Shown here: positions 1 through 8,197 of the stretch, piece by piece | Numbering within the stretch: the stretch's first letter is position 1 | Layout: every line of letters begins with the position of its first letter | Assembly: GCA_019058245.1 (NCBI GenBank) | Contig: JAHPZJ010000028.1 | Coordinates: forward strand, 224,503-234,522 | Length of the DNA stretch: 10,020 nucleotides | Direction of reading: 5' to 3' | Origin: Promethearchaeota archaeon | GTDB lineage: Archaea > Asgardarchaeota > Lokiarchaeia > Sigyniarchaeales > SOKP01 | Made by a program: the position numbers and the translations under genes | The notes under the pieces: model-generated | What the model was told of the DNA's origin: nothing | The model's database searches: none | What the model saw: the letters and a program-made list of their open reading frames with translations, nothing else

Positions 1-828
1 GAACCACTCATCCAAGCTTTAAAGGATGAAGATGAAATGATTCGAGCGTGGACAGCAGAAGCTCTCGGGAAAATGGGAAAACTTGCAGTAGAACCTCTCA
101 TTCATGCTCTAAAGGATGATCATAGATGGGTTCGAGAGAACGCAGCAGTAGCACTTGGGAAAATAGGAGATACAAGGTCAGTAGAACCTCTCATTCATGC
201 TCTAAAGGATGATCATAGATGGGTTCGAGAGAACGCAGCAGTAGCACTTGGGAAAATAGGAGATACAAGGTCAGTAGAACCTCTCATTCATGCTCTAAAG
301 GATGATCATAGATGGGTTCGAGAGAAAGCAGCAGGAGCTCTTGGGCAAATCGGTAATCCAAGAGCAGTAGAACCACTATTTCACACTTTAAAGGATAAAG
401 ATTCATATGTTCGAAAAGAGGCAGCAGAAGCACTTAAATTACTAAATTGGGAACCACTTAAAGAAACGGAGATGGTTTATTATTTTTTAGCGAAGCAAAA
501 TTGGGAAAAATTAGTAAAACTTGGGGAAATCGCGGTGGAACCTCTCATTCATGCTCTAAAGGAAGTAGCTGTTCGACAGAATGCAGCAGTAGCACTAGGG
601 GAAATAGGTGACACAAGGGCGGTCAATCCCCTTTTAAAGGTGGTAAGAGATAATTCAATTAATATGGACAGTAGAGTGGAGATAGTGTATGCAGTAAGGC
701 ATTTATCGGGAGATTGGCCCATTATTAAGTTAGATAGAAGTAATCATCGTGATAATACTATACCTGCTCATGGTCTTTGTCCTGGATCTCATACAGATGT
801 GGGTACTAAGAAATACCTTGAATTTTAA
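1..828 (+). CDS. HEAT/PBS-lyase-like repeat protein with C-terminal HxD-x8-C-x3-HxD tail (5'-partial)
   Basis: Frame 1 is open from base 1 ([17 protein letters not shown]...), so the ATG at 37 is internal and the gene starts upstream of the window. It has 31-aa repeats of the type [29 protein letters not shown] and a non-repeat tail [28 protein letters not shown]. Stop TAA at 826-828. Confidence 0.92.
86..326 (+). repeat. Perfect 93-bp coding tandem repeat (about 2.6 copies), one HEAT unit per copy
   Basis: GTAGAACCTCTCATTCATGCTCTAAAGGATGATCATAGATGGGTTCGAGAGAA... recurs at 88, 181 and 274. No mismatches were seen until position 327. Confidence 0.95.
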
Positions 829-1143
829 GAGTATTAACTTTTTTTAATAAATATATTATTAAAACCTTTATTAACTAAAAGAGAATCTTATTAAGATTAA
901 TTTATGTAATAATTATCATGATTTAATATATTACAATTATTTTTCAAGTTATAATAATAAATATAATCTGGAAAATTAAAGGCTTGATTCAAATCTTTCT
1001 TAATTTTATACTTCAGGAAAAATAGTATTGTTAATTTATAGATTCCATATCTAATTATCACATAAACTTAAATAAAAAGCCAAAATTAATTAACATTAAA
1101 ATTTAGATATACACAAATGTGAAAATCTATTCCATTTAAATTA

Positions 1144-1150
1144 AGGTGAT
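1144..1150 (+). promoter_or_regulatory. Archaeal-type Shine-Dalgarno (AGGTGAT)
   Basis: AGGTGAT ends 5 nt before the ATG at 1156. Confidence 0.7.
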
Positions 1151-1155
1151 TATGA

Positions 1156-3294
1156 ATGCCTTCTATTGAGGAATTGCTAAAAAAGAATGATGCTAAAGGT
1201 TTGATAAAGACTTTAAAAAATGAACGTTCTTATATTAGAGAAAGTGCTGTTAAGGCTCTTGGAAAGATTGGAGATCCAAGGACTGTAAAACCTCTCATTA
1301 AAGCTTTAAAAGATGAAAATAAGAATGTTCGAAAATTCACAGCAGAGACTCTTGGGAAGATTAAAGATCCAAAAGCCGTAGATCCACTACTTCAAGCTTT
1401 AAATGATGAAAATAAGGATGTTCGAAGATTCACAGCAGAGGCTCTTGGGAAGATTAAAGATCCAAAAGCCGTAGAACCATTAATTCAAGCTTTAAATGAT
1501 GAAAATACGGATGTTCAAGAATATGCAATAAAGGCACTAGGGTGGATAAGAGATGCAAGAGCAATAGATCCGCTAATTCAAGCTTTAAAAGACGAGAGTA
1601 AAGAAGGTCGAGATTACGTGACAATAGCATTAGGGTGGATTGGCGACACAAGAGCAATAGATCCACTCATTCAAGCTTTAAAAGACAGAAATATAAAGGT
1701 TCGAGAAAGTGCTGCAGAAGCACTAGGGAAAATAGGAGATCCAAGAGCAATTGAACCACTAATTCATTCTTTGAATGACATTAGTGAATTTGTTCAATGG
1801 AGAGCAACGGAGGCACTTGGGAATATAGGAGATCCAAGGGCTGTAGAACCTCTAATTCAACGTTTAAAACATAAAGATCCTATCAAACGCCGGAAAGCAG
1901 TGGTTTCTTTAGGGAAAATAGGAGATTCAAGAGCAGTAGAACCTCTAATTCAACTTTTAAAAGATAAAAATAGCGATGTTCGAAAGTTCACAATAGACGC
2001 ATTAAAAAAATTAAAATGGGATCCAATTAGTGAAATTGACAAAGTTTATTATTTTTTGGCTATAAAAAATTGGGAAGAATTAGTAAATCTAGGGAAAATC
2101 GCTGTAGAACCTTTGATCCAAACTTTAAACGATGAAAATAAAGATATTCGAGAGGGGTCAGCAAAAACTCTAGAGAAAATCGGGAATTCAGCATTGGAGT
2201 CATTAATCCAAGCCTTAAGAAACCAGAATTCTTTAGTTCGATGGAATGCAGTAGAATTACTTAAAAAATTGAAGTGGGAACCTATTAGTGACATAGACAA
2301 AGTCTACTATTTTTTGACCGTAAGATATGCTGAAGAATTAGTAAATCTAGGGAAAATTGCTGTGGAACCTCTAATTCAAGCGTTAGATGATGAAAATAAA
2401 GAAGTAAGAATTTTTGCGGCTTTAACTTTAGAAAAAATTGGAGATCCAAGAGCAGGAGACTCTCTAATCAAAAAGCTAGAAGATAAAGATGTTCGATCAT
2501 ACGCAAAAAGAGCTCTCGAGAAAATAGGGACCCCTACGGTAGACTTTTTAATTAAAACCTTAAAACATAAAAAAAAAAATGTAAGAATAAGTGTGATTGA
2601 ACTTCTTAATCTGATAAAAGATACAAGGGCAGTGGAACCTCTAATTCAAGTATTAAATGATGAGAATATTGATGTTCGAGCGAATGTAGTAGACGCTTTA
2701 GGGAATTTAGGAGATCTAAGGGCAGTAGAACCTCTAATTCAAGCATTAAAAGATAAAAATGACTTTATACGTAAAAGCGTAGTCATAGCTCTCGGAGAAA
2801 TAGGAGATCCTAGAGTAGTTGAGCCCCTAATCCAAACTTTAAAAGACAGAAATGAGTCTATACGTGAAAGAGTAGTTATTGCTCTTGAAAAAATAGGAGA
2901 TCCTAGGGCTGTTGAGCCGCTAATCCAAACCTTAAAGTATAAAAATAAATATTTTCGTGATTACTCCATCATCGCCCTAGGGAATATAGGAGATTCAAGA
3001 GCAATAGAACCATTAATCCAATTATTAGATGATGAATTTCATAGACGGGAGGTAGCAATAGCTCTAGGAAAAATAGGAGATACAAGAGCGGTCACCCCTC
3101 TTTTAAAGGTTGTAAGAGATAATTCGATTGATATGTGGAAAAGGGTGGAGATAGTGAGAGCAGTAAGACATTTAGCGGGGGATTGGCCTACTATTAAGAC
3201 AATTAAAAATCATTATGATTATACTGCAGATCCGGGAACAGTATGTGGTGGTTATCATAATGATAAGGGACCCGAAGAGACTCTTCTATTTTAA
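1156..3294 (+). CDS. 712-aa HEAT/PBS-lyase-like repeat protein with C-terminal HxD-x8-C-x3-HxD tail
   Basis: Roughly 20 repeats of about 31 aa ([30 protein letters not shown]), preceded by an SD. Tail NHYDYTADPGTVCGGYHNDKGPEETLLF. Paralogous to the upstream gene, with a shared VVRDNSI...RVEIV.AVRHL.GDWP cap. Confidence 0.95.
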   Translation: MPSIEELLKKNDAKGLIKTLKNERSYIRESAVKALGKIGDPRTVKPLIKALKDENKNVRKFTAETLGKIKDPKAVDPLLQALNDENKDVRRFTAEALGKIKDPKAVEPLIQALNDENTDVQEYAIKALGWIRDARAIDPLIQALKDESKEGRDYVTIALGWIGDTRAIDPLIQALKDRNIKVRESAAEALGKIGDPRAIEPLIHSLNDISEFVQWRATEALGNIGDPRAVEPLIQRLKHKDPIKRRKAVVSLGKIGDSRAVEPLIQLLKDKNSDVRKFTIDALKKLKWDPISEIDKVYYFLAIKNWEELVNLGKIAVEPLIQTLNDENKDIREGSAKTLEKIGNSALESLIQALRNQNSLVRWNAVELLKKLKWEPISDIDKVYYFLTVRYAEELVNLGKIAVEPLIQALDDENKEVRIFAALTLEKIGDPRAGDSLIKKLEDKDVRSYAKRALEKIGTPTVDFLIKTLKHKKKNVRISVIELLNLIKDTRAVEPLIQVLNDENIDVRANVVDALGNLGDLRAVEPLIQALKDKNDFIRKSVVIALGEIGDPRVVEPLIQTLKDRNESIRERVVIALEKIGDPRAVEPLIQTLKYKNKYFRDYSIIALGNIGDSRAIEPLIQLLDDEFHRREVAIALGKIGDTRAVTPLLKVVRDNSIDMWKRVEIVRAVRHLAGDWPTIKTIKNHYDYTADPGTVCGGYHNDKGPEETLLF
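1301..1516 (+). repeat. Near-identical 93-bp coding tandem duplication of a HEAT unit
   Basis: TTCACAGCAGAG(A/G)CTCTTGGGAAGATTAAAGATCCAAAAGCCGTAGA occurs twice, 93 nt apart. AAGCTTTAAAxGATGAAAATAxGxATGTTC occurs three times. Confidence 0.85.
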
Positions 3295-3417
3295 AATTTA
3301 TTAATACAATGATTATATCTCTTTAATGATAATGAAAATGATATTAATCAATTTTATTAATTTTAGGGAGTAAATAGAAAAAAGTAAAACGGTAATTAGA
3401 AATATAACTATAAAGAT

Positions 3418-5868
3418 ATGATTAACACAAATTTTAAGAATTTTTATCCTCAATTTATGATAATCCCTAGTTCTAAGTGTCAAGCAACTTGTCAATATTG
3501 TTTTGGTCCACATAAAGGAGAAATAATGACTATTAAACAATGGGATAAGACTTTACAATACATTATAAAAATAACAAGTAATTGGGATGCATCTAACACC
3601 ATTCGGTTTCTATTTCATGGTGGTGAGCCTTTACTTGTTGGTCACCAATTCTTCAAACAATGTTTAAAAGATATTGAATCGGCTTTTGGTTTAAATCGCG
3701 TTAAAATCAATATTCAGAGCAATCTTTGGGAGTTAGATAGTGAATTTATAAAATTGTTTCGAAACTATAAGGTAAATTTAAGTACTAGTCTTGATGGTCC
3801 TGAAAAAATTACGGACACTCAACGCGGTAAAGGATATTTTAGGAAAACATGGGATAGTATCAAGAAAGCTCGTGAAAATGGGATTGAAATAGGGTGTATA
3901 GTTACATTCACAACCCAATCATCTTCGCATTGGAAAGAAATTCTGGAGTTTTTCAAAGAAAATCACATTTTAATTCACCTTCATCCTGCAATTCCAACTT
4001 TAGGAGCAAATGAGAACAATAAATATGCCATCTCCCCTGAACAATATGCACTATTATTATCAGAAATGTTTGCTTATTATTTAAAACATTACCAAGATTT
4101 GATAATTTCTTCTTTTGAAGAAATGATACATTTTGTTGTAAATGGAAATCATAAAACTTGTGAATATGGAGATTGTTTGGGTAAATTTCTTGCAATAGAT
4201 TCTTATGGAAATATTTATCCATGTCAACGATTTATTGGAAATTCAGAATTTTGTATTGGTAATATTTCTGATCATGAAGGTTTTAATAATTATAATATTT
4301 GGACACATCCAAACCTCTCAAAGTTCTACAATCGTAAACAGTTTTTAGAAGCTCAAGCGTCTAGAGCTCTACCAGGTCTTAAGAAGTATGTTCTTGGTGG
4401 TTGCCCTTATCAAGCATTCTCAGCTAAATCTAAAAACTTACATGATCCATATTGGGTTACCAAGAAAGCATTTTTTGATGAAATAGAAACAAAATATATT
4501 AAAGAATACGTTCATCTTTTGGATATACCAGAAGCTTCGTTAGGTACAAGAAAACTTGTAAATGATTTTCCTATTACCACAATTATTAAAAGTGGCAAGA
4601 ATCAAGATTACTTGACGCGAAATGCTAAAAGAATCATTGCTGCTTATTTATTAGGGATTGATCAAAACATTTATTCTGTAAATGAATCTTTAATTCGACT
4701 TGGTCTTATAAAAAACAAAAAATCGGGGCTTTATACTTTAAAATCATTTAAAAAGCGATTATTAGCAATGCAGTACAACAATCTCTATATACATTTAACA
4801 TGGTCATGTAATCTCAAATGCAACCATTGTTATGCTCCGACAACGCAATATTTAGAACAAAAATCAGATGATGAGAGAGAAAAGAGTCGACAAAATCAAA
4901 AGAGGATTCATTTCCCAATTGAAAAAAATCTTCTAAAACAGATCTTTTTTGATGCGAAAAATGTAAATTTTCAAAAAATCGTAATTACTGGAGGTGAACC
5001 TACATGTCATCCTCAATTTGAACAATTTGTATATTTTCTTAAGGGTATAAAACAAGAATTATCACCTTTAAAATTGGTCTTGAGAAGTAATTGGACTTTG
5101 AATTTAACGGAGAAACTTATGACTACTATCTCTGAAGTATTTGATCAAATTGTAGTAAGCGTTGATGGAGATCAAGCCTCTCATGATAAAAGACGGGGGA
5201 AAGGCTCATATCAAAATACAATTAATAATTTAAAGAAATATAAGGAATTAACTTTTAATACCCATAAATCTGCTAGATTACACCTTGCATGTACTTCTGA
5301 ATTTGAACATTTAACTTCCGAACTCAAGAGTAGTGTTTATAATCTTGCACAACAACTAGGAGACGAGGTTGGTGTTCGTTACCGTCCTATTTTACCAATT
5401 GGGAAAGGTAAAAGCTTAAATCTTGCCTTAAAAAAATATATATCTTCGGATCCATACCATGCATTACGATTTTTAGCATCTGATTACACTCCAACGGCAA
5501 CTTGTGGATTAGGACGGAATCTATATGTTGATCCATCGGGAGATGTTTATCCATGCTATGCATATAAACCTAAGGGTTCAATACTAGGAAACATCTTTGA
5601 ATCCAGTCTTGAAGTAATATTAAACTCTAAAAAATTTCAAGATTTATATAATTACGACGTTGATAAAAACGATTTTTGCAGATCTTGTGAGGTTCGATAC
5701 TTATGTGGAGGTGGATGTCAAGCATGGAATATAATCTCCGATAAAGATTCAATAAAGAAACCTCCCTCGTTCTGTGATGGAAAAACAAGTCCATATTATG
5801 AAAGAGCTCTTGATTGGATAAAAATCGCTAAGGAATTCTTAGGTATCAATATAAAGATAATATCTTGA
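3418..5868 (+). CDS. Tandem (double) radical SAM/SPASM domain protein, putative peptide/protein maturase
   Basis: Module 1: MIIPSSK-CQATCQYC (3478-3501), FHGGEP, STSLDGP, then CEYGDC...GNIYPC. From memory its N-terminus resembles archaeal TIGR04083-type peptide-modifying rSAMs, which is not verified by HMM. Module 2: LYIHLTWS-CNLKCNHC (4807-4830), ITGGEP, VSVDG, then SPASM TCGLG...GDVYPC...CRSCEVRYLCGGGC...FC. Confidence 0.93.
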   Translation: MINTNFKNFYPQFMIIPSSKCQATCQYCFGPHKGEIMTIKQWDKTLQYIIKITSNWDASNTIRFLFHGGEPLLVGHQFFKQCLKDIESAFGLNRVKINIQSNLWELDSEFIKLFRNYKVNLSTSLDGPEKITDTQRGKGYFRKTWDSIKKARENGIEIGCIVTFTTQSSSHWKEILEFFKENHILIHLHPAIPTLGANENNKYAISPEQYALLLSEMFAYYLKHYQDLIISSFEEMIHFVVNGNHKTCEYGDCLGKFLAIDSYGNIYPCQRFIGNSEFCIGNISDHEGFNNYNIWTHPNLSKFYNRKQFLEAQASRALPGLKKYVLGGCPYQAFSAKSKNLHDPYWVTKKAFFDEIETKYIKEYVHLLDIPEASLGTRKLVNDFPITTIIKSGKNQDYLTRNAKRIIAAYLLGIDQNIYSVNESLIRLGLIKNKKSGLYTLKSFKKRLLAMQYNNLYIHLTWSCNLKCNHCYAPTTQYLEQKSDDEREKSRQNQKRIHFPIEKNLLKQIFFDAKNVNFQKIVITGGEPTCHPQFEQFVYFLKGIKQELSPLKLVLRSNWTLNLTEKLMTTISEVFDQIVVSVDGDQASHDKRRGKGSYQNTINNLKKYKELTFNTHKSARLHLACTSEFEHLTSELKSSVYNLAQQLGDEVGVRYRPILPIGKGKSLNLALKKYISSDPYHALRFLASDYTPTATCGLGRNLYVDPSGDVYPCYAYKPKGSILGNIFESSLEVILNSKKFQDLYNYDVDKNDFCRSCEVRYLCGGGCQAWNIISDKDSIKKPPSFCDGKTSPYYERALDWIKIAKEFLGINIKIIS

Positions 5869-5997
5869 AAAAAAAGATTTAAAATTTAAAGTATTCATGA
5901 ACCTTCTAGAAATCCTTATGAGTATAACTGCCAATTCCTACCACTGACCAATAATTAGATTATAACCACTAAGGAAATTTTCTAGAAAATAATCAGG

Positions 5998-6009
5998 TTT
6001 CTTTTTTTT
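5998..6009 (+). terminator. Possible oligo-T archaeal terminator in the convergent intergenic gap
   Basis: TTTCTTTTTTTT run downstream of the rSAM gene, between convergent genes. A 14-bp palindrome ATTTTCTAGAAAAT lies just before it at 5977-5990. Confidence 0.3.
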
Positions 6010-6037
6010 CAAACTTATAATTGGATTTTTGAAAAAA

Positions 6038-6334
6038 TTATATATCAAAAATTTCCCGTGCCTTTTCTTCGATAATAGAGTTATTCACTAAATCCCATAT
6101 TTCTGAATAATAAAATTTTTCGTCGTTCTTAACAATCAGGGGTAAACTTTCAACACACGCACTCATATCACAATAAAGACTATTAAATGTTGGATTTTTC
6201 ATCAATGGATCATCAAAATCTTTAGGATCTTGATAATCTAAAATAATATGAACTACATTCTTATCTGACAACCATTTAATTAATAAATCACAGAAAAAGC
6301 AATGCTTTTTAACTACTATTTTAAATTTAGCCAT
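6038..6334 (-). CDS. Small glutaredoxin/thioredoxin-fold-like protein (CxxC)
   Basis: 98 aa. An N-terminal beta strand is followed by KHCFFCDLLIKWL (CxxC at a helix start). A later ESLPLIV resembles the cis-Pro strand of the Grx fold, with an extra YCDMSAC just before it. Confidence 0.7.
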   Translation of the reverse strand: MAKFKIVVKKHCFFCDLLIKWLSDKNVVHIILDYQDPKDFDDPLMKNPTFNSLYCDMSACVESLPLIVKNDEKFYYSEIWDLVNNSIIEEKAREIFDI

Positions 6335-6356
6335 GAATGAAATACTACTTGATAAT

Positions 6357-6364
6357 TATTTAAA
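6357..6364 (-). promoter_or_regulatory. Putative TATA box for the glutaredoxin-like gene
   Basis: TTTAAATA on the minus strand, 23-30 nt upstream of ATG 6334, preceded by purine-rich AAAAATAAGA (BRE-like). The spacing suits a leaderless transcript. Confidence 0.4.
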
Positions 6365-6482
6365 TCTTATTTTAATTAATTATTATTCTTATCCTTAAAA
6401 ACACTATACTTGTAAATAATACATTTTAATATAGAAAAAGGTGATAGGATTAGCCAGTCTAGTGATTCTTTAAATTAGATAA

Positions 6483-7906: not shown

Positions 7907-8197
7907 TCGAATACAATCAATTAATATTATATTTTATTTTTTGATATAGTAGTTGAAAATACAGAATTTAATAATAAATTTTTGCTTTTATCTAAGAATT
8001 AGGTGATAGCATATCAAAATTCTTTAAATTTTAAAATCTTATCTTGATTAAGGTTTTCAATGGGATGAAGATTTAATTGTTGAGTAATTCCAATACTTTA
8101 ACTGTAATTTCCAGATAATGTTTGTTTATATTCATTTATCACTTTTTATAGTAGTATAGGAGAGATCTTAAGAGTATAGTTATTAGGAAAATCGAAT

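Follow-up and report, generated by a model that had tools for sequence, protein, structure and literature searches.

A fused double radical SAM/SPASM enzyme and a His-x-Asp/Cys tail module on helical-repeat proteins: a putative whole-protein maturation system of bacteria and archaea

We analysed a stretch of 10,020 nucleotides (nt), referred to as the window, from contig JAHPZJ010000028.1 (positions 224,503 to 234,522, forward strand) of the Promethearchaeota archaeon assembly GCA_019058245.1. It carries two genes for HEAT-repeat proteins, HEAT1 and HEAT2, both ending in a tail with His-x-Asp (HxD) units and a Cys, and a gene for an enzyme with two fused radical S-adenosylmethionine (SAM)/SPASM modules. 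The enzyme and the tail module are co-inherited in bacteria and archaea alike; the system is real and undescribed in the literature searched. The tail, a predicted hairpin, is very probably the target of the enzyme in some way: an enzyme with two active sites that almost always travels with these hairpins very likely modifies them chemically. By analogy with characterised maturases we give about even chances to a two-component cassette for whole-protein maturation, in which a helix before the tail would serve for docking, module 1 would couple His to Asp and module 2 would form a thioether at the Cys.

HEAT1 is represented in the window by the 3' part of a PBS-type HEAT-repeat protein gene (1 to 828, plus strand; ORF and Pfam). 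The initial annotation placed its start at position 37; the open reading frame (ORF) opens at about window position -872 and encodes about 566 amino acids (aa), and a scaffold gap (N) lies upstream of the window. Its tail core, HRD ... Cys ... HTD, was located by motif search at 745 to 798 (plus strand). HEAT2 (1156 to 3294, plus strand) encodes a 712-aa PBS-type protein, alphaRep-like by fold search, with the tail core H686-x-D688 ... C697 ... H701-x-D703 at 3211 to 3264 (plus strand). The 816-aa enzyme ORF (3418 to 5868, plus strand) begins 123 nt after the HEAT2 end at 3294, on the same strand. Pfam searches found HEAT_2/HEAT_PBS in both HEAT genes and two Radical_SAM and two SPASM matches in the enzyme, in agreement with the original description of two consecutive paralogous HEAT genes followed by a double radical SAM/SPASM protein. 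No signal peptide or membrane helix was found in the HEAT proteins. Both C-termini match the pattern H.D.{8}C.{3}H.D, and a genome-wide search of 51,042 six-frame ORFs returned these two only, with this pattern and with a looser one. A much looser motif in the last 45 aa also gave 2 of the 2,398 long ORFs of the genome, and the tail is absent from five other HEAT genes of the same genome. The gaps between the genes hold no small ORF with HxD/Cys, as the initial annotation had stated for a stand-alone precursor. Contigs from public sequencing runs span 297 to 1378 and 1446 to 6400 without insertions or deletions and confirm the joins between HEAT1 and HEAT2 and between HEAT2, the enzyme and the downstream gene; two of the three runs may themselves be the source of the window DNA, and no RNA run was listed among the carriers.

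The enzyme has 790 full-length relatives (33 to 79% identity), with named sources in Planctomycetota, Pseudomonadota, Eubacteriales, Anaerolineales, Hydrogenedentes and Armatimonadetes; Lamprocystis purpurea is a cultured carrier of the system. All 23 distinct double-type loci with flanking DNA encode one to three adjacent tail-bearing helical-repeat proteins, located upstream, downstream or on the opposite strand of the double enzyme. The proposed co-occurrence test was carried out in both directions and refuted nothing. In the forward direction, six loci picked once the idea had formed all had a HEAT neighbour (6/6), with at least two HxD units in four and one HxD plus Cys in two. In the reverse direction, three new tail proteins, chosen for their long contigs, all had a double radical SAM enzyme within 8 kb (3/3). 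A profile search with the tail recovered 766 clusters at 50% identity. Among 400 genomes of the phylum, enzyme and tail are found in the same 3 and neither is found in 397; since the three positive genomes were part of the tail training set, the information lies in the 397 negatives. About 50 single-module, methanogen-type TIGR04083 loci have no tail, and a few carry a TIGR04165 peptide instead. Around the 23 double-type loci no further gene family is widely recurrent. Specificity to archaea, suggested by the initial annotation, was rejected: the fused family is widespread, and the system is mainly bacterial.

These counts also bear on whether the HEAT genes and the enzyme are merely unrelated passengers of one insert. 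An unrelated P-loop gene does share the insert (see below) and HEAT genes are common, but the two-way co-occurrence holds in many lineages, on either side and on either strand, and none of the other five HEAT genes found here has the tail. Chance neighbourhood is thus already largely refuted and hardly credible. Three further searches added little. A single-protein scan of genome contigs returned just two distant radical SAM proteins, an atlas search gave generic HEAT clusters only, and a word-based search that took the HEAT2 tail as query had no hit at E<=0.001, which is uninformative because the profile search gave 766 clusters. The double enzymes of three loci (L022, L018 and L079) appear split or frameshifted in their contigs. 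Some bacterial loci (L095, L097, L107 and L009) lie among toxin-antitoxin genes, a WHH nuclease gene, Ser/Thr kinase-FHA-vWA genes or insertion sequence (IS) elements.

A set of 150 tails shows two to five HxD units at variable spacing. A single Cys is present in 136 tails and none in six, a conserved helix motif precedes the tail in 124, and 131 tails lie at most 25 residues from the C terminus. The gap from the Cys to the next His is 0 to 10 residues, and conserved residues follow the last HxD. The initial annotation described a fixed-spacing His/Asp/Cys motif; both window tails match it, but the 8/3 spacing is not conserved in the family and was rejected as its signature, belonging to these two paralogues only. 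Between the two anchor motifs, His is followed by Asp at +2 in 97 of 172 cases (56%), compared to 11% outside and an Asp background of 12%. This enrichment indicates that HxD is selected as a unit.

An AlphaFold2 model of HEAT2 599-712 (57 sequences) has four short strands, 81-85/109-113 and 89-91/102-104 in the model, with tail pLDDT (predicted local distance difference test) of 67 to 94. The one plausible pairing of these strands predicts a long beta-hairpin in which H686-x-D688 faces H701-x-D703 on the opposite strand and C697 is in the loop. A fold search with the tail model matched only the helical part, to alphaRep-type binders. If HxD units face each other in a hairpin, extra units should come in pairs, and this is what was found. 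In 128 tails, extra HxD units are present in both arms in 26, in neither arm in 79 and in one arm in 23 (odds ratio 16, p = 4e-10). The 25 tails with two HxD units per arm have mirrored spacing (e.g., 4/4, 6/6, 9/8 and 11/10; Spearman 0.71), and independent pairs on a rough tree of the flanks were concordant in 10 cases, discordant in none and tied in 15 (p = 0.001). Gains of HxD come as mirrored pairs, one unit on each side of the single Cys. Such mirror symmetry is required by a hairpin with facing His/Asp rungs and not by independent three-residue rings alone. The proposal that the tail is the substrate is strengthened by the two-way co-occurrence and by the co-fold docking described below, while a structured hairpin with mirrored HxD units is now predicted in place of a disordered core.

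The bodies that carry the module are about 135 to 970 aa long, some with repeat types other than PBS. Modules are also found mid-protein, in two copies or before a zinc ribbon (L011, L093, L106 and L107). Two short carriers of about 135 aa (L015:4791-5249 and L015:5586-6008) have three HxD-like units per arm and are near-minimal natural substrates, if the tail is the target. A 904-aa protein (L011:3297-6011) has two complete tail modules, one of them mid-chain; in L093 and L107 a zinc ribbon is C-terminal to the module, and the second carrier of L093 has many HxD units and no Cys. The architecture of these carriers bears on whether the HEAT body could be a large leader and the modified tail a small peptide that is cleaved from it and set free, as in a classical RiPP, a peptide made by ribosomes and modified post-translationally. 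The C-terminal position in 131 of 150 tails, the core-like variability, the short carriers and the leader-like docking of the helix would all suit a released peptide. The mid-protein, doubled and ribbon-capped modules, the range of bodies and the conserved residues beyond the last HxD do not, and no conserved protease, transporter or exporter was found at the 23 loci, although a housekeeping protease could do the cutting. Release of a peptide is considered improbable. The absence of a conserved protease or transporter nearby favours the HEAT protein itself as the product, which was one option of the initial annotation; the other, the solenoid as a giant leader, is not apt because the body varies in length and type and only the last helix is conserved and docks.

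The enzyme model is of good quality (pLDDT 88.9, predicted template modelling score 0.87) and its best fold matches are anSME, ChlB and CteB. Module 1 (3418 to 4524, plus strand) has the CX3CX2C triad at C21/25/28 and auxiliary cluster I (AuxI) ligands C248/253/269/329, and its fold resembles ChlB and anSME. The profile check suggested earlier gave TIGR04083 at 284.9 (cut-off 300) for this module, followed by DynA and then anSME and YhhB. Module 2 (4765 to 5868, plus strand) has CX3CX2C at C464/468/471 and a seven-Cys SPASM domain (C696, C713, C754, C757, C763, C767 and C786); its profile matches, StsB and PapB, are both weak. The GGEP motif is invariant in both modules. The module 2 cysteines align one-for-one with those of CteB, and the extra AuxI Cys is absent in 111 of 120 sequences. 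In CteB the AuxI site is open and occupied by the substrate Cys (PMC6231123), so the shared seven-Cys layout suggests that module 2 may take the tail Cys. An invariant Arg (R556) is found in module 2 where module 1 has Gln100. Formylglycine formation of the anSME type was rejected: Gln stands here in place of the catalytic Asp that follows the AuxI Cys, and there is no CxPxR motif. No mapping of H189 to the specificity residue of HaaB/HtkB was obtained, the register being ambiguous.

Module 1 of the family typically has eight SPASM cysteines. In the window enzyme and its clade the auxiliary cluster II (AuxII) site (4345 to 4455, plus strand) is degenerate: in seven enzymes (P0001 to P0007) none of the four AuxII ligands is left, while all four AuxI ligands are kept. 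The seven also keep the SAM-cluster triad where sequenced, GGEP, H67, Q100, Q270 and R271. The other 62 aligned enzymes retain the AuxII site, one with a single loss, and the seven form one clade (support 0.997). One member, P0005, belongs to G044, and the genes next to P0003, P0004 and P0007 encode proteins 70 to 75% identical to ones of this genome, which makes the AuxII-less clade largely associated with Lokiarchaeia, the hosts of P0002 and P0006 being outside this assignment. The candidate substrates of the clade have tail flanks of their own in the alignment. Sequencing error was ruled out as the cause of the Cys loss by the seven related enzymes and by the independent contigs, which show zero differences in the segment that lacks the cysteines.

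Co-folding of the enzyme with HEAT2 599-712, a check proposed in the initial annotation, gave a score of 0.67 against 0.31 for the best control. Of 80 solved complexes 58 come up to the mark, as do 2 of 110 mismatched pairs; these figures apply only roughly with the alignment used. The runs have at least 49% of contacts in common, with partner pLDDT of at least 62. The confident contacts are between the HEAT2 cap helix (M660-D676; 3133 to 3183, plus strand) and enzyme residues 357-369 and 318-321. The former make up the C-terminal helix of module 1 (4486 to 4524, plus strand), the main predicted docking surface; the latter are inside the segment that lost AuxII. The equivalent HEAT1 cap helix, by alignment and homology to the HEAT2 co-fold, is at 664 to 714 (plus strand). 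The model supports a leader-like role for the last HEAT helix before the tail, which would dock on module 1. In the archaeal clade one may ask if module 1 has become a docking domain only since the AuxII loss, with module 2 alone catalytic. All four AuxII ligands are gone in seven related enzymes and the freed segment touches the substrate helix in the co-fold, but these enzymes retain every conserved residue listed above, including the four AuxI ligands and, where sequenced, the SAM-cluster triad, and one-cluster twitch enzymes are active (PMC6231123). We regard this alternative as very doubtful.

In the whole-protein maturation cassette that we prefer, the last HEAT helix would dock at the end of module 1 and the tail would fold as a beta-hairpin with facing HxD units. 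Module 1 would place a radical on the Asp C-beta and couple it to the ring of a His; the two residues would belong to one HxD, as in triceptides, or lie on opposite arms of the hairpin. In the AuxII-less clade this module would work with a single auxiliary cluster, in a twitch-like fashion. Module 2, with the invariant Arg and an AuxI site open as in CteB, would bind the loop Cys and form a thioether. The product would be the cytoplasmic HEAT protein at full length, its terminal hairpin stapled and rigid, no peptide being released, and the HEAT body would serve as a variable binding domain. We infer both reactions by analogy; His-C2/C-beta and Tyr-x-Asp i,i+2 links are known chemistry (PMC11499958, PMC11002830). 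A more specific form, in which cross-strand covalent His-Asp staples, arranged as a ladder, and a Cys thioether zip the hairpin on full-length cytoplasmic repeat proteins, in a Loki-associated lineage that has reduced one SPASM domain to a single cluster, is on present evidence rather unlikely.

Several observations weigh against this cassette. Both modules score below the cut-offs of all characterised maturases, and full-length similarity is a poor predictor of chemistry in the superfamily (PMC10288494). The co-fold places only the cap helix confidently, not the HxD or Cys residues, and since leader complexes of the enzyme fold have been solved (ChlB, 9gm3), memory may contribute to the result. 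The strand pairing and register of the hairpin were read from the DSSP string of the model, at pLDDT 67 to 84. The symmetry statistics come from bacterial-type tails, while the window tails have one HxD per arm. The loss of AuxII could mean that module 1 is impaired here. Six of the 150 tails have no Cys, and the only tail of G044 lacks it, yet the G044 enzyme retains both modules.

The main rival to the stapled hairpin is that the facing HxD pairs are unmodified metal sites, with two His and two Asp per rung, and that the enzyme alters the loop Cys only or assists in the assembly of a metal or cofactor site on the hairpin. Such a set of residues is usual among metal ligands, and the mirrored gain of HxD together with the predicted hairpin would bring it onto one face; the near-invariant single Cys and the CteB-like module 2 would account for a reaction at the Cys. 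Such a site would leave one of two intact radical SAM modules without a job, and the Cys-less tail of G044 goes with an enzyme that keeps both. After TIGR04083, module 1 is also nearest to aromatic cross-linkers. A metal site is judged unlikely, though it carries more weight than the other alternatives.

The cluster lies in an accessory insert. Comparison with the congener G024 shows collinear flanks (82 to 91% identity) up to window -1796 and from 6025, and places an insert of 7.8 kb at about window -1796 to 6025, of which positions 1 to 6024 are the right part; the same site in G024 has about 960 bp and a short-chain dehydrogenase gene. The enzyme was found in 0 of 53 congeners. Third-position GC of the insert is 0.20 to 0.24 (genome median 0.19), which is within the range of the genome and argues against a recent foreign arrival. 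An accessory role in conflict or signalling would fit the patchy distribution and the location in an insert. The insert also carries, divergent from HEAT1, a gene for a 183-aa P-loop protein (G000:C28:222722-223273; window -1780 to -1229, minus strand) with a weak AAA_18 match, nucleotide-kinase-like. It was rejected as a component of the system since it is not found at the other loci.

Downstream of the insert, a 98-aa ORF at 6038 to 6334 (minus strand) has a CxxC near its N terminus and no Pfam or NCBIfam match; it is conserved among the congeners (93% in G024), has distant paralogues at 25 to 29% and is glutaredoxin-like by appearance only. In the region 7935 to 8195, G024 has an extra 261-aa gene between S13 and an FrhB-like gene that is absent here. 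The five actin-family matches of the host genome (best 441 bits) place it among the Asgard archaea; archaeal S13, S4 and S11 genes and a roadblock gene are found near the window genes, with no rpoD after S11 at the usual place. A profilin search gave no match anywhere and is uninformative. Elsewhere in the genome, a 344-aa ORF (G000:C29:28986-30020, minus strand) contains an extended low-complexity stretch of His-x-Asp repeats with a gap in it. It has no Cys module and no match to the tail profile and is probably unrelated.

With this pairing, a large orphan enzyme family (790 relatives, mislabelled TIGR04083) gains one specific candidate for its substrate, and the proposed split of tasks between its two active sites can be tested. 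There are few worked examples of radical SAM maturation of whole proteins (HXS, anSME and QhpD). The docking helix and the hairpin together make up about 55 residues and are found on bodies of many sizes; such a module would be a portable protein tag. Cross-strand His-Asp staples, if they are real, would have a cross-link topology not reported before. What AuxII does is a long-standing question in SPASM enzymes, for which a clade that has lost it throughout provides a natural experiment.

The literature searched, which covered few subscription journals, holds no description of the system under TIGR04083, radical SAM plus HEAT repeat plus RiPP, or Asgard plus radical SAM plus RiPP, and for HxD plus cyclophane the same coverage gave unrelated work only; the earlier view that no characterised pathway has this architecture stands. 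By profile and sequence comparison the enzyme is not a proper TIGR04083 member and does not belong to a known triceptide or ranthipeptide family. TIGR04083, a hypothetical peptide-modifying radical SAM family of methanogens with no assigned function, is the family named nearest to module 1 and supplies the NCBI label of the fused homologues. Its true members are single-module enzymes (615.8 bits, with a TIGR04165 Cys-rich peptide adjacent in L065). Here module 1 alone is below the cut-off, AuxII is lost and a second module is added; the whole protein passes at 313.3 because two domains are summed, and bacterial fused homologues pass at 354 to 376. No TIGR04165 match was found in this genome (76% complete). 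In a midpoint-rooted tree, the single-module methanogen enzymes form one clade nested among the doubles (support 0.88), next to the double enzyme of G367 (L102), and the singles may derive from doubles.

The triceptide or cyclophane synthases (HaaB, HtkB, YhhB, YxdB and ChlB) and the dynobactin maturase offer precedents for a His-first aromatic-x-X motif and for the Asp C-beta as acceptor. The tail fits the Aromatic-X2-X3 motif, given the enrichment of HxD as a unit; the fold of module 1 resembles ChlB/anSME, and DynA is its second-best match. However, the scores for families of enzymes that form three-residue cyclophanes (3-CyFE) are far below their cut-offs (YhhB 98/445, AmcB 85/425, GrrM 76/310 and FxsB 66/370), the substrates there are short peptides, and a His-x-Asp link, mirrored pairing and a protein carrier are absent from the literature examined. 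Among the thioether-forming SPASM enzymes, CteB shares the seven-Cys layout of module 2, and PapB and QhpD link Cys to the Asp C-beta, in QhpD within an enzyme subunit. In contrast to these, the present enzyme has no RiPP recognition element (RRE) domain, acts on a tail with one Cys only, if at all, and scores 60 to 90 bits, below the cut-offs; the fixed CX3D-type spacing of ranthipeptides and sactipeptides is not seen, given the variable gap from Cys to His.

The closest parallel is the His-Xaa-Ser (HXS) system (HxsA with HxsB, HxsC and HxsD), in which two radical SAM activities mature a folded His-x-X repeat protein, with +8 Da at His-x-Ser (PMC13128918). Both systems have two radical SAM activities and a substrate with a His-x-X motif, and a protein is the product in HXS and is proposed to be so here. 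In our system the HxD units come in mirrored pairs with one Cys, the enzymes are fused, and the scores are 83 against a cut-off of 370 bits for HxsB and 29.5 against 267.9 for HxsC. No HxsA (TIGR03979) match and no HxsD-like partner was seen. HxsA has HxS repeats, a peptidoglycan-binding domain and export, whereas the HEAT proteins are without signal peptide, and the tail here is acidic, not basic. Anti-phage activity is a feature of HXS; for the present system PADLOC returned generic HEAT and viperin-fold matches only. On the best reading, the system is analogous to HXS and would work most like it, without being a member.

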